Below are positions 3,380 through 56,521 of a DNA stretch of 64,000 nt, in pieces; positions within the stretch are counted from its first letter, which is position 1, and each line of letters begins with the position of its first letter. Made by a program: the position numbers and the translations under genes. The notes beneath the pieces are model-generated. The model ran no database searches, was not told the DNA's origin, and saw only the letters and a program-made list of their open reading frames with translations. The stretch comes from Shigella phage ESh25: sequence record ON528735. One strand, given 5' to 3'.

Positions 3380-4132
3380 ATGGCAAACATTATTCGTTGT
3401 AAATTACCAGATGGTGTTCATCGTTTTAAACCATTTACGGTAGAAGATTATCGAGATTTTTTGTTAGTTCGAAACGATATAGAACATCGGTCACCACAAG
3501 AACAAAAAGAAGTAATTGCTGATTTAATTGCTGATTATTTTGGAGACTATCCAAAGACTTGGCAACCATTTATATTTTTGCAGGTATTTGTAGGGTCAAT
3601 AGGTAAAACTAAAGTACCAGTCACATTTGTATGTCCAAAATGTAAAAAAGAAAAGACAGTTCCATTTGAAATATACCAAAAAGAATTAAAGGAGCCTGTT
3701 TTTGATATAGCTAATGTTAAAATTAAATTAAAGTTTCCTTCTGAGTTTTATGAAAATAAAGCAAAGATGATTACTGAAAATATTCATTCTGTTCAAGTAG
3801 ATGAAATATGGTATGATTGGAAGGAAATTAGCGAATCAAGTCAAATAGAACTTGTTGATGCCATCGAGATAGAAACATTAGAAAAAATTCTCGATGCAAT
3901 GAATCCTATTAATTTAACATTGCACATGTCGTGTTGTGATAAGTACATTAAAAAATACACTGATATAGTAGATGTGTTTAAGCTATTAGTTAATCCAGAT
4001 GAGATATTTACTTTTTATCAAATTAATCACACACTCGTAAAAAGTAATTATAGCTTAAATTCAATAATGAAAATGATTCCTGCCGAGCGCGGATTCGTAT
4101 TAAAACTGATTGAGAAGGATAAACAACAATGA
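3380..4132 (+). CDS. 51: baseplate hub assembly protein gp51
   Basis: 250 aa, position after gene 26; AAGGAG before ATG. Confidence 0.85.
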
Positions 4133-51129: not shown

Positions 51130-51279
51130 TTACTGCATGACTGTGATAACCGTCATGATAACACGTTGAATTCCGAACGCAAGAAGACCTCCTGCTACGG
51201 CAGGAACAACACCTAAACCCGCCAGTAAAATGCCACCAGATACTAATGCAGCGCTTGTGATACCAATGAATGGACTCAT
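51130..51279 (-). CDS. small hydrophobic Gly/Ala-rich membrane peptide (49 aa)
   Basis: Found by eye; ATGA overlap with the gene 52 stop; single predicted transmembrane segment. Confidence 0.45.
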   Translation of the reverse strand: MSPFIGITSAALVSGGILLAGLGVVPAVAGGLLAFGIQRVIMTVITVMQ

Positions 51280-52604
51280 TTGATTTCCTCTAAATCTTTG
51301 GTGTATTCTGTAACTACATCAGTAGTTTTCCAATATTCGTTTTCTTCTTTTTTGGCTTTAGCTTCTTCAGCAAGTTTCTTTGCTTCGTCGGAAGTCATAT
51401 GAAAAATATTCATTCCGACTAGTTTATCAACATAAGAAGAATACATCTCAATTTTAGAAAGTTCTTCGGTCAGTTCTTTACGAGTTTTACCCTGCACAAC
51501 AATTTCACCTGAAATTACTTTCTTAATGAAATGTGCCTTGGCAAAAGCTAAACGAAATGCTAATTCAGTTTCTTTGATTTTGTTATCAATTCGTTTTTGG
51601 ACATAAGTTTTACGAACTTCAACGAAGTCTTTGATTAAATCAACTACATTATCGTAAACTTGTAGTTTTCCTTTCTCATTAATAACCGTAATATTCTGAG
51701 AACGACGCTCAATCAACCCGAAGTCTTTCATAATTTTTGCATGGCGTTCTTCTTCGTTATCGCTCAAAGAGTATTCTTTGCGGAATTTAACTTTGAAGCC
51801 AAAGCCATGCTCACCACAAGCATCATCCCATGTAATGAAGCCTTTATCTTCAAGCGGGTCTAAGATTTTACTCACATAAGTTTCACGATCATACTTATAT
51901 GGAATCTCAGTGATATGCATTTGAGTTCGTGAAGTAAACTTATATGTTCCACGAATTTCATATTGCCCATCAATTTCAACGACTTCACCACGAAATTCTG
52001 GGAATTCTACCTTCGGTTTAGTTACTTTCTTTCCTTGAAGAGCTTGCAGTACAGCTTTCTTGACAGAAGAAACACTATGAGGAAGAATGTAAGTTGCATA
52101 ACCAGTTGCAATACCGGAAACGCCATTAAGAAGAACAGTAGGAATAATAGGCAAATAGAAAGCAGGCGGAATGTGTTCTTTATCTTGATGTACCGGAGCA
52201 TATTCAGTATCTTTATATACGTTATAGAAATTTTTACTTACACGAGCAAAAATATAACGACTTGCTGCTGCCTTTTGGACAGTACGAGAACCAAAGTTTC
52301 CTTGACCGTCTAACAGAGGAAAGTTATTATTCCAAGTGTTAGCCATCAAAGCACCTGCGTCTTGTGCAGAGTTTTCGCCATGGTGATATCCAAGGTCCGC
52401 TACACCACCTGCAATAGAAGCGAGTTTGTGAAACTTATCTTTATTTCCTCGTGCCAAATCAAGAGCTCGAGCAATAACAAATCGTTGAACTGGCTTAAAT
52501 CCATCAATCATATTTGGGATAGCACGATTTTCAACCGTGTACATAGCATAAGCCAATGCTTCATTATCAATGATACTTTTTAAATCGCGATTATTCAGTT
52601 GCAT
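51276..52604 (-). CDS. 52: DNA topoisomerase II medium subunit gp52 (GyrA-like)
   Basis: 442 aa, same as T4 gp52. Confidence 0.9.
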   Translation of the reverse strand: MQLNNRDLKSIIDNEALAYAMYTVENRAIPNMIDGFKPVQRFVIARALDLARGNKDKFHKLASIAGGVADLGYHHGENSAQDAGALMANTWNNNFPLLDGQGNFGSRTVQKAAASRYIFARVSKNFYNVYKDTEYAPVHQDKEHIPPAFYLPIIPTVLLNGVSGIATGYATYILPHSVSSVKKAVLQALQGKKVTKPKVEFPEFRGEVVEIDGQYEIRGTYKFTSRTQMHITEIPYKYDRETYVSKILDPLEDKGFITWDDACGEHGFGFKVKFRKEYSLSDNEEERHAKIMKDFGLIERRSQNITVINEKGKLQVYDNVVDLIKDFVEVRKTYVQKRIDNKIKETELAFRLAFAKAHFIKKVISGEIVVQGKTRKELTEELSKIEMYSSYVDKLVGMNIFHMTSDEAKKLAEEAKAKKEENEYWKTTDVVTEYTKDLEEIK

Positions 52605-52741
52605 AAATTTACCATACTAGTGAATGTAGTGCCATAATAACATCAGAAATGAAAAGCACGACTTGAATTAATCCGAACATTATTCCGTAATATAACGCTA
52701 TCAATAAAATAGCAAGGGCTAATGAATAGCCCAAGATTTTC

Positions 52742-52897
52742 TTAATCATTAGATAACAACACAAATGTTAAATATGCACACATACCTTGGGCTAAAGCCT
52801 GCGAAAACACACTGCTGGCATCGATACAGATAGTTAAAACACATGCTACTATCCAACAAATAAATGAAATAACTCCTAATAATTTTGCGATATTCAT
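52742..52897 (-). CDS. ac: small membrane protein (51 aa), Ac-like
   Basis: Found by eye; 51 aa hydrophobic; GAGGAAAAT Shine-Dalgarno; T4 order 52-ac-stp-ndd. Confidence 0.5.
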   Translation of the reverse strand: MNIAKLLGVISFICWIVACVLTICIDASSVFSQALAQGMCAYLTFVLLSND

Positions 52898-52904
52898 ATT
52901 TTCC

Positions 52905-52985
52905 TCACTGGCGTCCGAAGACGCCTTTAGTTTTAAGATTATTACGATAGAACTGCATCACGTGTTCGTTGTGGAAATTACTCAT
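52905..52985 (-). CDS. stp: Stp peptide (26 aa), activator of the host PrrC anticodon nuclease
   Basis: Translation [26 protein letters not shown] matches recalled T4 Stp; 1-nt overlap with the ndd stop. Confidence 0.7.
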
Positions 52986-53443
52986 TAATATGCCTGCAAA
53001 ACGAATTTAAAATTATCAGCCAACATACGGTTCATTTCTTCAAGTGTTTGATACTCAGAATGATGATTACGAGTAAACGCTAAAGCTAACTGTCCTTTTC
53101 CAAATCCCGTCGTCAGAGGTTTCATCTTAGAAGCAGGCAGATAAAATACTGTGTATGGAACATTGTTATTTGCAATAGTACGTGCAAGCTGAGACCGACG
53201 TTGACGAATATGACTTAGAACTGCACTGAATCCTTGCTTAGAACGCTGATTACCTACATAAAATCGTGCAGACACACATGGATTACTAAATGGACGACCA
53301 TCTAATTTACTTACTAAAAAGTAAAATCCAGGTTTAGATAAAATGTCTTTATGCGGAGTTCCCAAAAACCATTCACCGCCCTTGATTGTGCCAATAACAG
53401 TAGCGCCTGCATTATTCAGATCAGTAACAGTCATGTATTTCAT
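52985..53443 (-). CDS. ndd: Ndd nucleoid disruption protein
   Basis: 152 aa from [13 protein letters not shown] (T4 Ndd about 151 aa); track start is an upstream extension. Confidence 0.85.
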
Positions 53444-53503
53444 ATTAATTTCCTCTAAATTATTTTCTACTCCAAGGCCGCATGAATACACACGGCCATT
53501 AAA

Positions 53504-53719
53504 TTACTCGTCGCAGTCGACGCTCAATTCCCAGAATTCTTCTACGGTATAAGTTTCAGTATCATTTTCAATACAGAAACGTTCATTACTGTTATTTGCT
53601 AAAGTAGCGTTAACTGTCATTTTCTCGCTGGTGCTCTTAAGAGGTGAAATACGAATTAACTGATCACCACTATTCAAGCAAAAAATTTCGCCAACTTTTA
53701 CATCTTTAAAAATTTTCAT
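53504..53719 (-). CDS. hypothetical protein (71 aa)
   Basis: ORF in the ndd-denB small-ORF array. Confidence 0.5.
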   Translation of the reverse strand: MKIFKDVKVGEIFCLNSGDQLIRISPLKSTSEKMTVNATLANNSNERFCIENDTETYTVEEFWELSVDCDE

Positions 53720-53834
53720 AATTCACCTCAGGGAGTATAAAACCCAAATGCAGTTGTTGACCATCCCATCCAATATGGAAAATTTGCACCAATGTAAAAC
53801 ATAAGAATATAAAACCAACCGCTCAGCAAATTCA

Positions 53835-54032
53835 TCATTTTACACCATTCCAAATTGTTTCAACTACGGATTTTAAACCATTTTGATGAATGTCCATTCC
53901 GACTACCGCCATCAAATAGATTCCAACTACAACTGAACCTAAGGCAAAAATCAGCATGAAAATGAATAAAGCCGGAAAAATATTATCGAAAAACCATTCA
54001 ATAAATGTAAAAGCACTGCGTTTACGCTTCAT
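53835..54032 (-). CDS. small membrane protein (65 aa from MKRKRS)
   Basis: GAGGAAAATATG start; one hydrophobic helix. Confidence 0.5.
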   Translation of the reverse strand: MKRKRSAFTFIEWFFDNIFPALFIFMLIFALGSVVVGIYLMAVVGMDIHQNGLKSVVETIWNGVK

Positions 54033-54039
54033 ATTTTCC

Positions 54040-54153
54040 TCACATAAATCCAAAATAAACGTTTAATACATCAATCATTAAAACGATTGGGAATATACTC
54101 AAAACTATTAGTATTATAACTACATTCCATATAGCTTTAATAATCTTTTTCAT
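54040..54153 (-). CDS. small hydrophobic peptide (37 aa)
   Basis: Track N-terminal extension reads through the promoter at 54182-54211; Shine-Dalgarno GGAGGAAC. Confidence 0.4.
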   Translation of the reverse strand: MKKIIKAIWNVVIILIVLSIFPIVLMIDVLNVYFGFM

Positions 54154-54181
54154 TTTCTGTTCCTCCGTAGTTGATAGGGTA

Positions 54182-54211
54182 ATAGTACCACGGAGGAACA
54201 GTCTTGTAAAC
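54182..54211 (-). promoter_or_regulatory. early promoter with inverted repeat that includes the downstream Shine-Dalgarno
   Basis: GTTTAC, 18 nt, TACTAT; inverted repeat TTCCTCCGT/ACGGAGGAA. Confidence 0.5.
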
Positions 54212-54395
54212 CACTTTTTAAAAATATTCGTAATAAATGTGAATACCAACTACTACCGCTGAAACTTGCGCAACCCACCACGCACAAGCAATAAGTACAG
54301 AATTCAAAATTTTCATAATAACCTCATTACAAAAGTAAATGTTAAACAAATTACTGGAATACTAATTAACCAAACAAAACACCACCACAGTGAAC

Positions 54396-54659
54396 TCATA
54401 GTTCAATCTCAGCGATTTTCATTTCATTACTATTAATAGCCGCTTTAAGACTATCTGAAAGAATTACATTCCAGTGGTCATTCATATGACCATTAACTAA
54501 GCGTGTAATTTCTTCAGGAGTTGAAAAATAAGGCTGATCAGACTCCCAGTGCGATAATCCTAAGCGAGTATAAATCATGCCTTCATCATCGCTAGAATAT
54601 TCAACTGACACAAACTCATCAGTTATTTTATGTTTAGCGTAATAAAATTTAAATTTCAT
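54396..54659 (-). CDS. hypothetical protein (87 aa from MKFKFYYAK)
   Basis: Track extension reads through the promoter; GGAGAATAAAATG start. Confidence 0.5.
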   Translation of the reverse strand: MKFKFYYAKHKITDEFVSVEYSSDDEGMIYTRLGLSHWESDQPYFSTPEEITRLVNGHMNDHWNVILSDSLKAAINSNEMKIAEIEL

Positions 54660-54693
54660 TTTATTCTCCAAATCCGTATCAGTTGATAGTTGT

Positions 54694-54723
54694 ATAGTAC
54701 CACGGTCCTTGTGGTATGTAAAC
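54694..54723 (-). promoter_or_regulatory. early promoter; cassette family member
   Basis: GTTTAC, 18 nt, TACTAT; shares GGTACTATACAACTATC with the 34358 and 51044 cassettes. Confidence 0.5.
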
Positions 54724-54739
54724 TGTTTTGTGAAATTTT

Positions 54740-55297
54740 TTAAATGGAAAGATACCATCCGTTGTAGTTGCTTTTTCTTACAACCTTACGAAGGTCTTCT
54801 CTGTCACCGATGAACTTCGGAGTGTACTGGATGACACCTGGATGAATTTCTTTAGTGTTGAATATAATTATACAGTCAGCGACTTGATGATTTAGAATGG
54901 GCCCTAGATTTATTCCAGAACCGTATGGATACTCTCCGCTGCATCCTGTTGTTACAGAAATCCAACGTGAGTCAGTTTGGTGTGTCTTAACTTCTACACG
55001 GAGCCCACAGTATTTTGGATGTGCCAAAACATCCCATGCATATGTGTACGGATCATCGACATCTTCTTGGCCTTTATTGACATATCCGCTTAGCCAATCT
55101 GCCACAAAAAACTCTGCGTACACAGCGATACGGCATCTTTCGATAACTTCTGCCTTATCCTGATTTGGATTTTGTTTTAAAGAGTATCTTGCAGTATCAG
55201 CAATTTTGGCCTTCATTTCACTAGTCAAGTCACTGTTAGATAGGGTAAATGACGGAATCTGAAATAGTCTCTGCAAACCCGGATTCGTTTTCTGCAT
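54740..55297 (-). CDS. denB: endonuclease IV
   Basis: 185 aa, same as T4 DenB; adjacent to rIIB. Confidence 0.8.
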   Translation of the reverse strand: MQKTNPGLQRLFQIPSFTLSNSDLTSEMKAKIADTARYSLKQNPNQDKAEVIERCRIAVYAEFFVADWLSGYVNKGQEDVDDPYTYAWDVLAHPKYCGLRVEVKTHQTDSRWISVTTGCSGEYPYGSGINLGPILNHQVADCIIIFNTKEIHPGVIQYTPKFIGDREDLRKVVRKSNYNGWYLSI

Positions 55298-55348
55298 TTA
55301 AACTTTCCTTTATGTCGGAATCATAATTTCTCTTAAAACAAAAGGGCC

Positions 55349-55360
55349 GAAGCCCTTATT
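55349..55360. terminator. hairpin GGGC-CGAA-GCCC, terminator-like on both strands
   Basis: Followed by TTATTTATTT on plus and TTTTGTTTTAAG on minus; same stem recurs at 55577-55588. Confidence 0.5.
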
Positions 55361-55554
55361 TATTTGAATTGTGCAATTCTTTTCTCTAAACATTCAGCAT
55401 AAGATTTCATTGAGATGAACTGTGAAAGTAGCAGTTCTTGCTCAACTGCACTAACTGTTAGAAACTTTGCGCTTTCTAAAAATTTACTCAGTGCATTAAT
55501 TTTGAGCATTAATTGATCGTATTCTTCTTTTACTCGTGCTTGATAACCTAACAT
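55360..55554 (-). CDS. hypothetical coiled-coil protein (64 aa)
   Basis: ORF between rIIB and denB. Confidence 0.5.
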   Translation of the reverse strand: MLGYQARVKEEYDQLMLKINALSKFLESAKFLTVSAVEQELLLSQFISMKSYAECLEKRIAQFK

Positions 55555-55582
55555 AATTTTCCTTAGTTAAGGGCCGAAGCCC

Positions 55583-56521
55583 TTATTTAAATTGTTCAGT
55601 AACGTCTTCAATTACTTCGTATTGGCAGGTACGCATTTTAGCGTCGTTGTAATCAATCGGAATTGATACTACATCACGAGGATGAACTTTAACTTTTACA
55701 ACTCGACTAGTTGAACCACCGAAGTGACGAATATAAGATTTAGAACACACATGCAGACCACGAGAACAAGTTTGTGTATCATCGTCATTCACACGAGTAC
55801 GCGGCATTTTAACTACTTTACCCGGGCTGTTATCAAAGGTGTTTGAATGACAGTCAAAGTAATTACTACGAACTACTTTCCAAGCATAGAAGTAACCATC
55901 TTCTGTAATTTCAATATCATTTGCTACCAAGAAATCAAAGAGTCGAGATACCGCTTTTTGGCTTGGGTTTTCCAGCAGATTTTCCAAGAACGGAAAATAA
56001 AATTCAAAGTTTTCGCCTTTTTCCATCGAATCAAGAATACGATCAACCAAACCAGACCGCAATTCAATATTTTGATAGAATAAGCTTCCACCTTCAATTC
56101 GAACATCGCCGGAAATATATTTTTCAACAGCGCGACGAACATTAATTTTTTGTGCCGCTTCTTCTAACTTATCTGCTACGAGCAGATTAAGAATTTCCTG
56201 GAAGTTTGAATGTGTATTAGGAGTTGCGTTATAAGTTACACCGTCAACAGTAATTGAAATGAATTTTTTAGATGCATTCCAAATAATGTCAGATTTAGCA
56301 ACTGGAGCAATAACTGCATCGCTATTAACTTTAACTGTAATATCACCGCTAATAGTAACTTTAGGGCGTTTAGCTTCTTCAGCATTTTTCAAAACACGAC
56401 GAATTGTGTCAACCGATACACCTTGCCAATCAGCCAATTCCTGTTGGGTGTAATTACCACTTGAATACAGCTTAACAATTTCAGCTTGTTCGTTTTTGGT
56501 CAGGCATTTAATATTGTACAT
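55583..56521 (-). CDS. rIIB: rIIB membrane-associated protein
   Basis: 312 aa, same as T4 rIIB. Confidence 0.9.
   Translation of the reverse strand: MYNIKCLTKNEQAEIVKLYSSGNYTQQELADWQGVSVDTIRRVLKNAEEAKRPKVTISGDITVKVNSDAVIAPVAKSDIIWNASKKFISITVDGVTYNATPNTHSNFQEILNLLVADKLEEAAQKINVRRAVEKYISGDVRIEGGSLFYQNIELRSGLVDRILDSMEKGENFEFYFPFLENLLENPSQKAVSRLFDFLVANDIEITEDGYFYAWKVVRSNYFDCHSNTFDNSPGKVVKMPRTRVNDDDTQTCSRGLHVCSKSYIRHFGGSTSRVVKVKVHPRDVVSIPIDYNDAKMRTCQYEVIEDVTEQFK

Follow-up and report, generated by a model that had tools for sequence, protein, structure and literature searches.

The T4-type block of small hydrophobic peptides around ndd in Shigella phage ESh25

In T4-type phages, topoisomerase gene 52 and denB flank a block of accessory early genes. 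Transcripts of the block belong to the early class in T4, where Ndd protein was detected early in infection and Ndd.1 by mass spectrometry, and the same proteome study missed Stp and every hydrophobic peptide (Class_P = NA) (PMC9697503, Table S2 for transcripts). This missing detection is weak negative evidence, because tiny hydrophobic peptides suit shotgun mass spectrometry poorly. The block genes are all non-essential, and no phenotype has been recorded for them in transposon (HIDEN-SEQ) or CRISPRi (CRISPRi-ART) screens. The T4 Stp peptide, identical to the one encoded here, activates the host PrrC anticodon nuclease by inhibiting the type IC restriction enzyme EcoprrI (PMC1484252), in agreement with the role that an initial annotation of the present sequence had given it. 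T4 ac makes the infected cell sensitive to acriflavine, and a 2025 preprint proposes that Ac blocks AcrAB-TolC, a candidate target (10.1101/2025.06.30.662393).

T4-type phages also possess hyperplastic regions and promoter-early stem-loop (PeSL) cassettes (Arbiol et al. 2010, PMC2839356; Comeau et al. 2014, PMC4122927), the latter with the consensus TTTACW-N17-TAYWAT (PMC4122927). The block is itself a published hyperplastic region, and the exchange of ndd.4 and ndd.5 is among that paper's own examples (PMC4122927).

T4 Imm and Sp are likewise small phage proteins, made early and located in the membrane or periplasm, but have no Pfam or PHROG relationship to the block peptides. The T4 genes imm.1 and sp lie elsewhere in the genome. 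On the bacterial side, AcrZ is a small inner-membrane regulator of 49 aa that binds AcrB, which it modulates rather than inhibits. Ac is of similar size, hydrophobic and helical, and the same pump, AcrAB-TolC, has been proposed for it, although as the target of a candidate inhibitor; the likeness is a functional analogy only. Homology between the two was rejected, as BLASTP with an approximate AcrZ query gave no alignment at E <= 100.

Gene content of the block in ESh25

The window analysed here is a 64,000-nucleotide stretch of Shigella phage ESh25 (sequence record ON528735). By DNA identity it is a T4-like (Tequatrovirus) genome: it shares 99.4% of its sequence with phage Jbel, and hundreds of Tequatrovirus genomes match it at 92-97%. 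Positions 52609-54659 on the minus strand, which carries all the features described below, correspond to the annotated T4 block 52.1/ac/stp/ndd/ndd.1/ndd.2/ndd.3+2a/ndd.4/ndd.5/ndd.6 together with an 87-aa gene lost in T4. The block genes match the T4 annotation (NC_000866, T4p265-T4p275) one to one; gene order, strand, junction overlaps and promoters are all the same, the proteins are 93-100% identical to their T4 counterparts, and every ORF could be assigned to a Pfam or PHROG family. In contrast, the T4 reference has ndd.3 plus ndd.2a where the window has an intact 65-aa gene, Ndd.4 is annotated with 42 aa in T4 and has 37 aa in the window, and the 87-aa gene between ndd.6 and denB is reduced in T4 to an 8-codon remnant. 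An IMG/VR search with Ndd returned five near-identical loci, and the loci for comparison were therefore taken from GenBank records.

The initial annotation had pointed to a dense run of tiny peptides in this region. All the ORFs that it claimed are present on the minus strand, and its calls of Ac, Stp, ndd, gene 52 and denB are borne out by Pfam, PHROG and T4 matches. The observation is thus correct but not new, because the stretch is a long-annotated T4 gene block; all its ORFs have been named since the T4 genome was annotated, and the small-peptide cluster was already known. As a discovery it carries little weight, the region being a published example of modular shuffling.

Nearest to gene 52, 52.1 (52609-52749) encodes a 46-aa hydrophobic peptide (phrog_3595) that matches PF24129 (DUF7396) over residues 1-46 with 78.3 bits against a gathering score of 27; it accounts for the sub-cutoff peptide suspected at 52607-52749. 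The gene begins within an 8-nt overlap with the stop of ac, a Shine-Dalgarno (SD) site of its own is absent, and its pN/pS is 0.19. The peptide is 72-91% identical in RB69 and Dhakavirus, its conserved motif YYG..G....VLFISDVI...SLvW occurs in a Klebsiella T4-like phage too, and tblastn hits to it came from 733 phage records, in many of which it is left unannotated. The adjacent ac (52742-52897; SD GAGG 7 nt upstream; pN/pS 0.12) encodes the 51-aa acridine-sensitivity protein (phrog_2501, E = 2e-25), 100% identical to T4 Ac, with two hydrophobic helices and uncharged stretches at residues 6-25 and 27-50. Directly downstream of ndd, with whose stop it has 1 nt in common (TAATG), and 7 nt ahead of the ac start lies stp (52905-52985; pN/pS 0.13). 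Its 26-aa product matches PF08133 (E = 2e-21) along its full length, residues 1-26, with 75.3 bits (cut-off 25), and is 100% identical to T4 Stp (NP_049878). Stp had initially been counted among the hydrophobic peptides, but with a GRAVY of -1.03 it is hydrophilic. Siphovirus Stp homologues were rejected as a new find, rtp6 of phage Rtp being already so annotated. The last stp codons contain a tetraloop hairpin (GGCGUC-UUCG-GACGCC, 52910-52925) that ends 3 nt ahead of the ac SD site and is invariant across all compared loci except T2; it is not a terminator on the coding strand, because no U-run follows it. Upstream of stp are ndd itself (52985-53443), for the soluble nucleoid disruption protein of 152 aa (PF06591, E = 1e-95), and ndd.1 (53504-53719), for an acidic soluble protein of 71 aa (phrog_2183; GRAVY -0.38, 14 acidic residues, pN/pS 0.10).

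On the denB side, ndd.2 (53728-53838) encodes an uncharged, aromatic-rich peptide of 36 aa (12 F/W/Y; phrog_4135), the one indicated earlier at 53720-53834. It joins the upstream 65-aa gene by an ATGA overlap, its pN/pS is 0.24 with a marginal third-position excess (P = 0.066), and its start codon is ATA instead of ATG in three loci; a homologue with the motif FPYW(M/L)G is found in Kanagawavirus PEi20. The 65-aa product of ndd.3/2a (53835-54032; 72 aa if an upstream TTG is used) has a basic N-terminus, MKRKRS, one predicted transmembrane (TM) segment and, at the C-terminus, a conserved tail, GLKSVVETIWNG, whose motif is kept in PEi20 and a Klebsiella phage. As a single ORF it matches PF23906 (DUF7248) over residues 6-63 with 71.9 bits (gathering score 27); the gene has a pN/pS of 0.12 and is intact in 14 of 16 loci checked. 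In NC_000866 the gene is split by a 1-nt deletion, which is missing from three other T4 records. Read against these records, ndd.3 and ndd.2a make up a single 65-aa gene, which corrects the annotation. A second correction sets the length of ndd.4 (54040-54153; SD GGAGG 7 nt upstream) at 37 aa: the phrog_3098 profile, to which this predicted single-TM peptide belongs, is likewise 37 aa long, and the ATG that opens the 42-aa T4 annotation reads ACG in the window. Within Tequatrovirus ndd.4 has four variable sites, too few to judge selection; Dhakavirus has the peptide at 61% identity, and PEi20 also conserves it.

The interval 54250-54396, also indicated at the outset, holds two ORFs. The 32-aa hydrophobic peptide of ndd.5 (54218-54316; phrog_5011) is preceded by the SD site GAGG and an ATGA overlap with ndd.6; its pN/pS is 0.10, with 2/0/8 variable sites at codon positions 1/2/3. 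The 28-aa hydrophobic peptide of ndd.6 (54313-54399; phrog_8851; pN/pS 0.23 from few sites) overlaps the 87-aa ORF by ATGA in turn. It occurs in 502 phage records. RB69 carries ndd.5 and ndd.6 unannotated, the latter 54% identical and with its ATGA coupling retained; the equally unannotated Dhakavirus homologue of ndd.6 starts with TTG, and both homologues have in common the Ndd.6 pattern MSS..W...W...IP.IC..F. The 87-aa ORF (54396-54659; phrog_2390) is a homologue of RB69ORF270c and encodes a soluble protein (GRAVY -0.51) with a confident alpha/beta AF2 model. T4 lost it when the stretch between two ATGAAA repeats was deleted in frame, which left the 8-codon remnant. A 120-aa form (54396-54758, overlapping denB) was rejected as a coding extension, because the PHROG profile spans residues 34-120 only, because an early promoter lies inside the extension, and because RB69 has no extension and relatives are frame-shifted in it. 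Thus, where four further membrane peptides of 37-87 aa had been announced, Ndd.4 and Ndd.3/2a are hydrophobic as described, but Ndd.1 and the 87-aa protein are soluble by GRAVY and the AF2 model.

Expression, exchange and proposed function

Two conserved T4-type early promoters serve the block. One (54182-54210; GTTTACA-N17-(TGg)TACTAT, repeat family D1) stands upstream of ndd.4 and the genes downstream of it and is conserved in T4, T2, Jbel, PM123, Lutter and ECO78. The other (54694-54722) stands upstream of the 87-aa ORF, ndd.6 and ndd.5; T2 and ECO78 have a different ORF behind this cassette, and T4 has the deletion remnant. With a third copy at 51072-51044 they form a 53-nt promoter repeat whose copies are 64-81% identical and all fit TTTACW-N17-TAYWAT. 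As in PeSL cassettes, small ORFs of the window are exchanged between close relatives at promoter repeats. A stem-loop terminator, which completes a PeSL, was detected ahead of the 51072-51044 copy (51125-51104) and was not detected ahead of either promoter copy in the block. A match to "Pseudomonas phage vB_PSGBLB0006" was rejected as a related block, since only promoter/5'UTR cassettes are in common, ahead of unrelated genes.

Host sigma-70 RNA polymerase would transcribe from 54722-54694 and 54210-54182 towards gene 52 right after infection, giving an mRNA with ten small cistrons set end to end. Besides the three ATGA overlaps, the junctions comprise one TAATG and the 8-nt overlap at ac/52.1, with SD sites otherwise, so that each cistron may be translated from its own SD site or by re-initiation at overlapping stop/start signals. 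The compared phages differ by genes gained or lost, replaced or inactivated one by one.

The analysis establishes which genes these are, that they are under coding constraint, which promoters and couplings they have and that their distribution is mosaic. The best explanation, in which we place considerable confidence, is that the block is an early accessory set of independent, individually dispensable host-interaction modules, exchanged among phages through recombination at the promoter repeats. Stp binds and inhibits EcoprrI and so unleashes PrrC in prr+ hosts, as the literature shows; Ac would cause acridines to build up in the infected cell, probably through a block of AcrAB-TolC; and Ndd disrupts the nucleoid. 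The seven hydrophobic peptides are predicted to insert into the host inner membrane, where 52.1 and Ndd.2 to Ndd.6, by analogy, may each bind an inner-membrane or periplasmic component, the 65-aa protein putatively through its conserved C-terminal tail. Since genome-wide screens recorded no phenotype, we infer the role of host modulator for all but Ac and Stp. Labels such as "outer membrane" and "periplasmic" on ndd ORFs are unsupported, because beta-barrel length and a recognisable signal-peptide cleavage context are absent.

A more specific version is tentative, and we think it somewhat unlikely as a whole: that 52.1, Ndd.2, Ndd.3/2a, Ndd.4, Ndd.5 and Ndd.6 are each a phage-made ligand with its own specific target, a different one for each, among the host's inner-membrane or periplasmic machines. 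Efflux pumps, transporters and defence sensors anchored in the membrane would be examples of such machines; the peptides could act as small-protein regulators in the style of AcrZ, with Ac on AcrAB-TolC as the first example; and the binding surfaces could be the invariant, periplasm-facing DUF7248 tail DGLKSvvETiWnG and the 52.1 motif VLFISDVI...SLvW.

The initial annotation had suggested roles in host takeover or superinfection exclusion. Host takeover is fair as a general label for an early-transcribed block with Ndd, Stp and Ac, but nothing favours exclusion: Ac, the sole hydrophobic peptide with a phenotype, is tied to drug efflux or permeability, and no small protein of the block matched the Imm/Sp superinfection-exclusion or holin/antiholin families in Pfam or PHROG at E <= 0.1. 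A PADLOC scan of all small proteins likewise gave no match to anti-phage defence, and an NCBIfam scan of the same set returned sub-threshold noise only. The Pfam result also bears on whether the hydrophobic peptides form one joint membrane complex, such as a superinfection-exclusion, lysis-timing or ion-leak device, as the earlier wording implied. The genes are indeed adjacent, co-transcribed and partly coupled in translation (the 87-aa ORF to ndd.6 to ndd.5; ndd.3/2a to ndd.2), and the same membrane is predicted for all hydrophobic products. However, RB69 has 52.1, ac, an ndd.5-like gene and ndd.6 but neither stp nor ndd.2 to ndd.4, Dhakavirus has ndd.4 and ndd.6 but neither ndd.2, ndd.5 nor the 65-aa gene, a nonsense codon interrupts the 65-aa gene in the T2 record, and disruption of single genes is without phenotype. 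We therefore give a joint complex little credence.

Just as improbable in our estimate is that the peptides are real but near-functionless cargo, ORFans retained by hitch-hiking on mobile promoter cassettes (PeSLs). The published exchange in this hyperplastic region (PMC4122927), the dispensability of all the genes and the known losses (the 87-aa gene in T4, the 65-aa gene in the T2 record, ac broken in PM123 and the T2 record) would fit such cargo, but purifying selection on the small ORFs is as strong (pN/pS) as on ndd and denB.1, the families persist in genera infecting Escherichia, Edwardsiella and Klebsiella, and Ac and Stp have clear phenotypes.

The peptides keep some worth as a pointer to six cross-genus families with no assigned function even in the best-studied phage. 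Such small peptides are regularly missed by automatic annotation, and neither standard proteomics nor fitness screens of single genes on laboratory E. coli can reveal them. If the Ac-AcrAB-TolC proposal is true, the neighbouring peptides are the next candidates as phage modulators of host membrane machinery, which would be relevant to phage-antibiotic synergy. The practical output is annotation repair, covering ndd.3/ndd.2a, the length of ndd.4, the unsupported localisation labels and ndd.5 and ndd.6 of RB69.

Hydrophobicity, density and coding constraint

The block encodes seven hydrophobic micro-proteins of 28-65 aa (52.1, Ac, Ndd.2, Ndd.3/2a, Ndd.4, Ndd.5 and Ndd.6), each with one hydrophobic stretch except Ac, which has two; Stp, Ndd, Ndd.1 and the 87-aa protein are soluble. 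Counting ATG-ORFs with a minimum length of 28 aa and a Kyte-Doolittle mean over 19 residues of 2.0 or more, we found six hydrophobic ORFs in the 1791-nt block against 0.36±0.54 (maximum 2) in 300 dinucleotide-preserving shuffles. The unusual density noted initially is thus far above chance. Five of the six small hydrophobic minus-strand ORFs with an SD site and an ATG in the 64-kb window fall in 51.1-54.3 kb.

Judged by codon-level constraint, the sub-60-codon ORFs are coding sequence rather than regulatory DNA. In the annotated frame pN/pS is about 0.08-0.25 for the small ORFs; in other frames it is mostly 0.4-13, above 1 in most cases, with stops in nearly every sequence. Variable sites pooled over codon positions 1/2/3 number 39/27/102, a third-position excess with P = 3.6e-13, although for Ndd.4 and Ndd.6 variation within Tequatrovirus is too low for a significant selection test. 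Homologues of 52.1, Ndd.2, DUF7248, Ndd.4 and Ndd.6 with conserved motifs occur in Mosigvirus, Dhakavirus, Kanagawavirus and a Klebsiella T4-like phage. Conservation of these regions as regulatory nucleotides only, the refutation foreseen at the outset, is rejected on these grounds. It is very improbable indeed that some or all of the ORFs below 50 codons are by-products of T-rich DNA whose conservation reflects regulatory or structural RNA or promoter cassettes: the hydrophobic peptides went unseen in T4 proteomics, many GenBank records leave the small ORFs uncalled, conserved promoters and hairpins do occur in the region and Ndd.4 and Ndd.6 give no significant codon-position signal inside the genus, but low pN/pS and third-position bias are confined to the annotated frame, amino-acid motifs persist at 44-61% identity in genera where blastn misses the small-ORF DNA, the number of hydrophobic ORFs exceeds that expected from composition, and an Rfam search of the region gave no match.

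Beyond the coordinates first considered, motA.1 (51130-51279), just downstream of gene 52, encodes a 49-aa hydrophobic peptide with a pN/pS of 0.08 and belongs to the same small-peptide hot spot; 3' of it follow the terminator and then the third promoter copy.

Gene map and expression signals of the 52-denB block

The sequence comes from the genome of a T4-like myovirus. Over the 2.3 kb surrounding the block, identity is 99.4% to Salmonella phage Jbel and 92-97% to several hundred genomes of Tequatrovirus, and by ORF listing and sequence the genes map one-to-one onto the T4 reference annotation. All lie on the minus strand: gene 52 (51276-52604; topoisomerase II medium subunit), 52.1 (52609-52749; 46 aa, DUF7396), ac (52742-52897; 51 aa), stp (52905-52985; 26 aa, PF08133), ndd (52985-53443; 152 aa, PF06591), ndd.1 (53504-53719; 71 aa), ndd.2 (53728-53838; 36 aa), ndd.3 and ndd.2a as a single ORF (53835-54032; 65 aa, DUF7248), ndd.4 (54040-54153; 37 aa), ndd.5 (54218-54316; 32 aa), ndd.6 (54313-54399; 28 aa), an 87-aa ORF missing in T4 (54396-54659), and denB (54740-55297; 185 aa). 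Every product has a Pfam or PHROG family; except for Stp, Ndd, 52.1 and the 65-aa protein, these are function-unknown PHROGs. The initial annotation had the ORFs and their approximate coordinates right, and the three intervals that it listed below the ORF cutoff are 52.1, ndd.2, and ndd.5 with ndd.6. It was a correct reading of a gene block already known and named; what interest remains lies in six conserved peptide families of the model phage that are still without a function.

A 53-nt repeat (repeat family D1) occurs three times, each copy being a T4 early promoter with the pattern GTTTACA-N17-TGgTACTAT. On the minus strand, the copies lie upstream of the 87-aa ORF (54722-54694), upstream of ndd.4 (54210-54182), and (51072-51044) beyond the strong terminator (51125-51104) at which the gene 52-motA.1 unit stops. 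T4, T2 and the other Tequatrovirus genomes keep all three. For the last ORF, a longer 120-aa form was rejected in favor of the 87-aa form because the promoter at 54722-54694 falls inside the extension, the PHROG profile spans residues 34-120 only, the extension is missing from RB69, and relatives carry frameshifts in it.

ATGA overlaps occur at three junctions (87-aa ORF/ndd.6, ndd.6/ndd.5 and 65-aa gene/ndd.2), the ndd/stp junction is TAATG, ac and 52.1 overlap by 8 nt, and the remaining junctions have 7-8-nt spacers with GAGG or GGAGG. The ORFs devoid of a Shine-Dalgarno (SD) site (52.1, ndd.6 and ndd.2) are exactly those with overlaps, which fits translational coupling. A UUCG tetraloop hairpin, GGCGUC-UUCG-GACGCC (52910-52925, minus strand), occupies the last stp codons 3 nt before the ac SD and is unchanged, synonymous positions included, in every compared locus but T2; it may stabilize the mRNA or tune ac translation.

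Coding status and hydrophobicity of the small ORFs

Our comparison set of 15 related loci included T4, T2, Jbel, ACG-C40, pSs-1, PM123, Lutter, JEP6, ECO78 and five IMG/VR contigs (L008-L012; L numbers denote comparison loci), with RB69 and one Dhakavirus added for depth. In the annotated frame, pN/pS was 0.08-0.24 for motA.1, 52.1, ac, stp, ndd.2, the 65-aa gene, ndd.5, ndd.6 and the 87-aa ORF, on par with ndd (0.10) and denB.1 (0.09). The other two frames gave mostly 0.4 to 13, the majority above 1, with stop codons in nearly all sequences. Pooled variable sites were distributed 39/27/102 over the codon positions (P = 3.6e-13). Individually, ndd.4 had only four variable sites, the 3/2/5 distribution of ndd.6 was not significant alone, and the ndd.2 signal was marginal (P = 0.066); the coding status of these three is settled by deeper homologues. 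Ndd.4 keeps 61% identity in Dhakavirus and can be recognized in Kanagawavirus PEi20 and a Klebsiella T4-like phage, the Ndd.6 pattern MSS..W...W...IP.IC..F is retained in RB69 and Dhakavirus, and FPYW(M/L)G is common to Ndd.2 and an ORF of PEi20. Also retained are the C-terminal tail of the 65-aa protein, DGLKS(v/l)(v/i)(E/D)T(i/v)W(n/e)G, and the 52.1 motif YYG..G....VLFISDVI...SLvW. By tblastn, phage records matched numbered 613 for Stp, 502 for Ndd.6, 596 for Ndd.4 and 733 for 52.1, many with the ORF unannotated. An Rfam search of the region returned no RNA family. Because selection is frame-specific, with variation concentrated at third positions, homologues reach deep and no RNA family was found, conservation at the nucleotide level only, an alternative raised in the initial annotation, is not borne out, and it is highly improbable that the tiny ORFs are non-coding sequence.

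Hydropathy upheld the proposed membrane peptides for seven products, namely 52.1, Ac, Ndd.2 (uncharged and one-third aromatic), the 65-aa protein, Ndd.4, Ndd.5 and Ndd.6, but not for three others: Stp, which is hydrophilic, Ndd.1, which is acidic and soluble, and the 87-aa ORF, whose product is also soluble. An eighth hydrophobic peptide, MotA.1, is encoded immediately downstream of gene 52. The density of such ORFs is no artefact of composition: the 1791-nt block holds six hydrophobic ATG-ORFs of at least 28 aa, versus 0.36±0.54 (maximum 2) in 300 dinucleotide-preserving shuffles. Five of the six small hydrophobic minus-strand ORFs with an SD site in the 64-kb window fall in 51.1-54.3 kb, the only stretch where plus-strand AT skew is positive, a signature of U-rich hydrophobic codons.

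Mosaic gene content and annotation errors

The block is a mosaic. At the position of the 87-aa ORF, some phages share the allele of the window; PM123, Lutter and JEP6 have one with 53-56% identity to it, and T2 and ECO78 have an unrelated 68-aa ORF there, preceded by the same promoter. T4 has lost 237 nt in frame between two ATGAAA repeats, which leaves a remnant of 8 codons (L001 5494-5622), still with its SD, its ATG and the ATGA overlap to ndd.6. The ac allele of ECO78 (L017 3238-3393) is of RB69 type and is flanked by T4-type stp and 52.1; ac is a broken ORF with start codon ATA in PM123 (L014 1743-1900) and is disrupted in T2 record PV958097 (L018 3501-3754), where the Stp C-terminus is also replaced. 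Genes absent are stp and ndd.2 to ndd.4 in RB69, and ndd.2, ndd.5 and the 65-aa gene in Dhakavirus. Since genes are gained and lost one at a time, an obligate multi-peptide assembly is disfavored, and we give very little credence to the peptides forming one joint complex. The pattern agrees with the hyperplastic regions of T4-type phages, which are shuffled at promoter-early stem-loop (PeSL) cassettes with the T4/PST consensus TTTACW-N17-TAYWAT, a ndd.4/ndd.5 exchange being among the worked examples (PMC4122927).

Annotations also diverge. T4 NC_000866 carries a 1-nt deletion right after the start of the 65-aa gene (L001 4933-5129; ATGAA-CGT versus ATGAAGCGT), which yields a truncated 'ndd.2a' and an 'ndd.3' read out of frame, the latter listed by CRISPRi-ART as a PHROG singleton (PMC11879866). 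The missing G and an intact 198-nt ORF are present in T4 records MT984581, KJ477684 and OZ209057 and the other relatives checked; in the T2 record the gene is interrupted by a TGA nonsense codon. The annotated 42-aa ndd.4 of T4 starts at an ATG within the SD region, where the window has ACG; the conserved form is 37 aa. RB69 encodes unannotated ndd.6 and ndd.5-like ORFs (L004 3840-3926 and 3733-3843), ATGA-coupled to RB69ORF270c, and Dhakavirus an ndd.6 homologue (L005/L022 4266-4355) whose apparent TTG start overlaps the upstream stop.

Outside the peptide genes, two identical plus-strand copies of a 21-nt stem-loop, AAGGGCCGAAGCCCTTATTTA (55342-55362 and 55569-55589), lie on either side of denB.1, as expected of a cassette with PeSL-type stem-loops at its ends. 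The window has a T4-type 185-aa denB (54740-55297) directly followed by denB.1; Jbel (L002 3738-4557), its closest relative over the ndd block, and many others have denB annotated as 158 aa and an extra 330-nt ORF, so the window is also mosaic around the block. The 142-kb vB_PSGBLB0006 (L007), deposited as a Pseudomonas phage, shows 85-90% identity to the block's two early-promoter/5'UTR/SD cassettes, there preceding unrelated genes (2501-2567 and 3933-4026), which fits mobile promoter cassettes.

Expression, fitness and proposed function

Table S2 of a T4 time-course places the transcripts of motA.1, 52.1, ac, stp and ndd.2 to ndd.6 in the 'early' class and records no detection of their proteins; Ndd and Ndd.1 were detected, as early proteins (Wolfram-Schauerte et al., PMC9697503). 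The HIDEN-SEQ transposon-sequencing supplement lists T4 52.1, stp, ndd and ndd.1 to ndd.6 as non-essential, with almost all TA sites hit and no significant change (q = 1.0) in the conditional comparisons retrieved (10.1101/2025.11.20.689424). The CRISPRi-ART supplement scores these genes and ac as 'Not Fit' (PMC11879866). That the peptides are functionless cargo seems to us most unlikely.

The block is best explained as an array of accessory genes that are independent of one another, expressed early and organized much like an operon. It would be transcribed by host RNA polymerase from two early promoters, ribosomes would translate the packed cistrons in part through coupling, and the seven micro-peptides are predicted to enter the inner membrane. 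The function of Stp is known: it inhibits the type IC enzyme EcoprrI, releasing the latent PrrC anticodon nuclease (PMC1484252). That of Ac is known in part. Ac makes T4 infection acriflavine-sensitive, and plasmid-borne ac sensitized E. coli to acriflavine and ampicillin in a 2025 preprint, which puts forward a block of AcrAB-TolC by this two-helix peptide (10.1101/2025.06.30.662393); a 2026 PNAS paper restates the block as an assumption. No sequence similarity was found between Ac and the AcrZ sequence used for comparison. With moderate confidence, we infer that each of the other peptides modulates some host envelope component.

Stp homologues are present beyond the T4 family. Kagunavirus vB_EcoS-Ro145clw (L006 2494-2571) encodes an unannotated 25-aa homologue, identical at 23/25 residues, immediately downstream of the endolysin gene and preceded by promoter-like and SD-like sequences; the siphovirus stp homologue lacks the GGCGUC-UUCG-GACGCC hairpin. 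Further tblastn matches came from a Tunavirus and records named Veterinaerplatzvirus. In phage Rtp (L025 583-675), rtp6 is already annotated as Stp-like, and a polynucleotide kinase/phosphatase lies two genes away.
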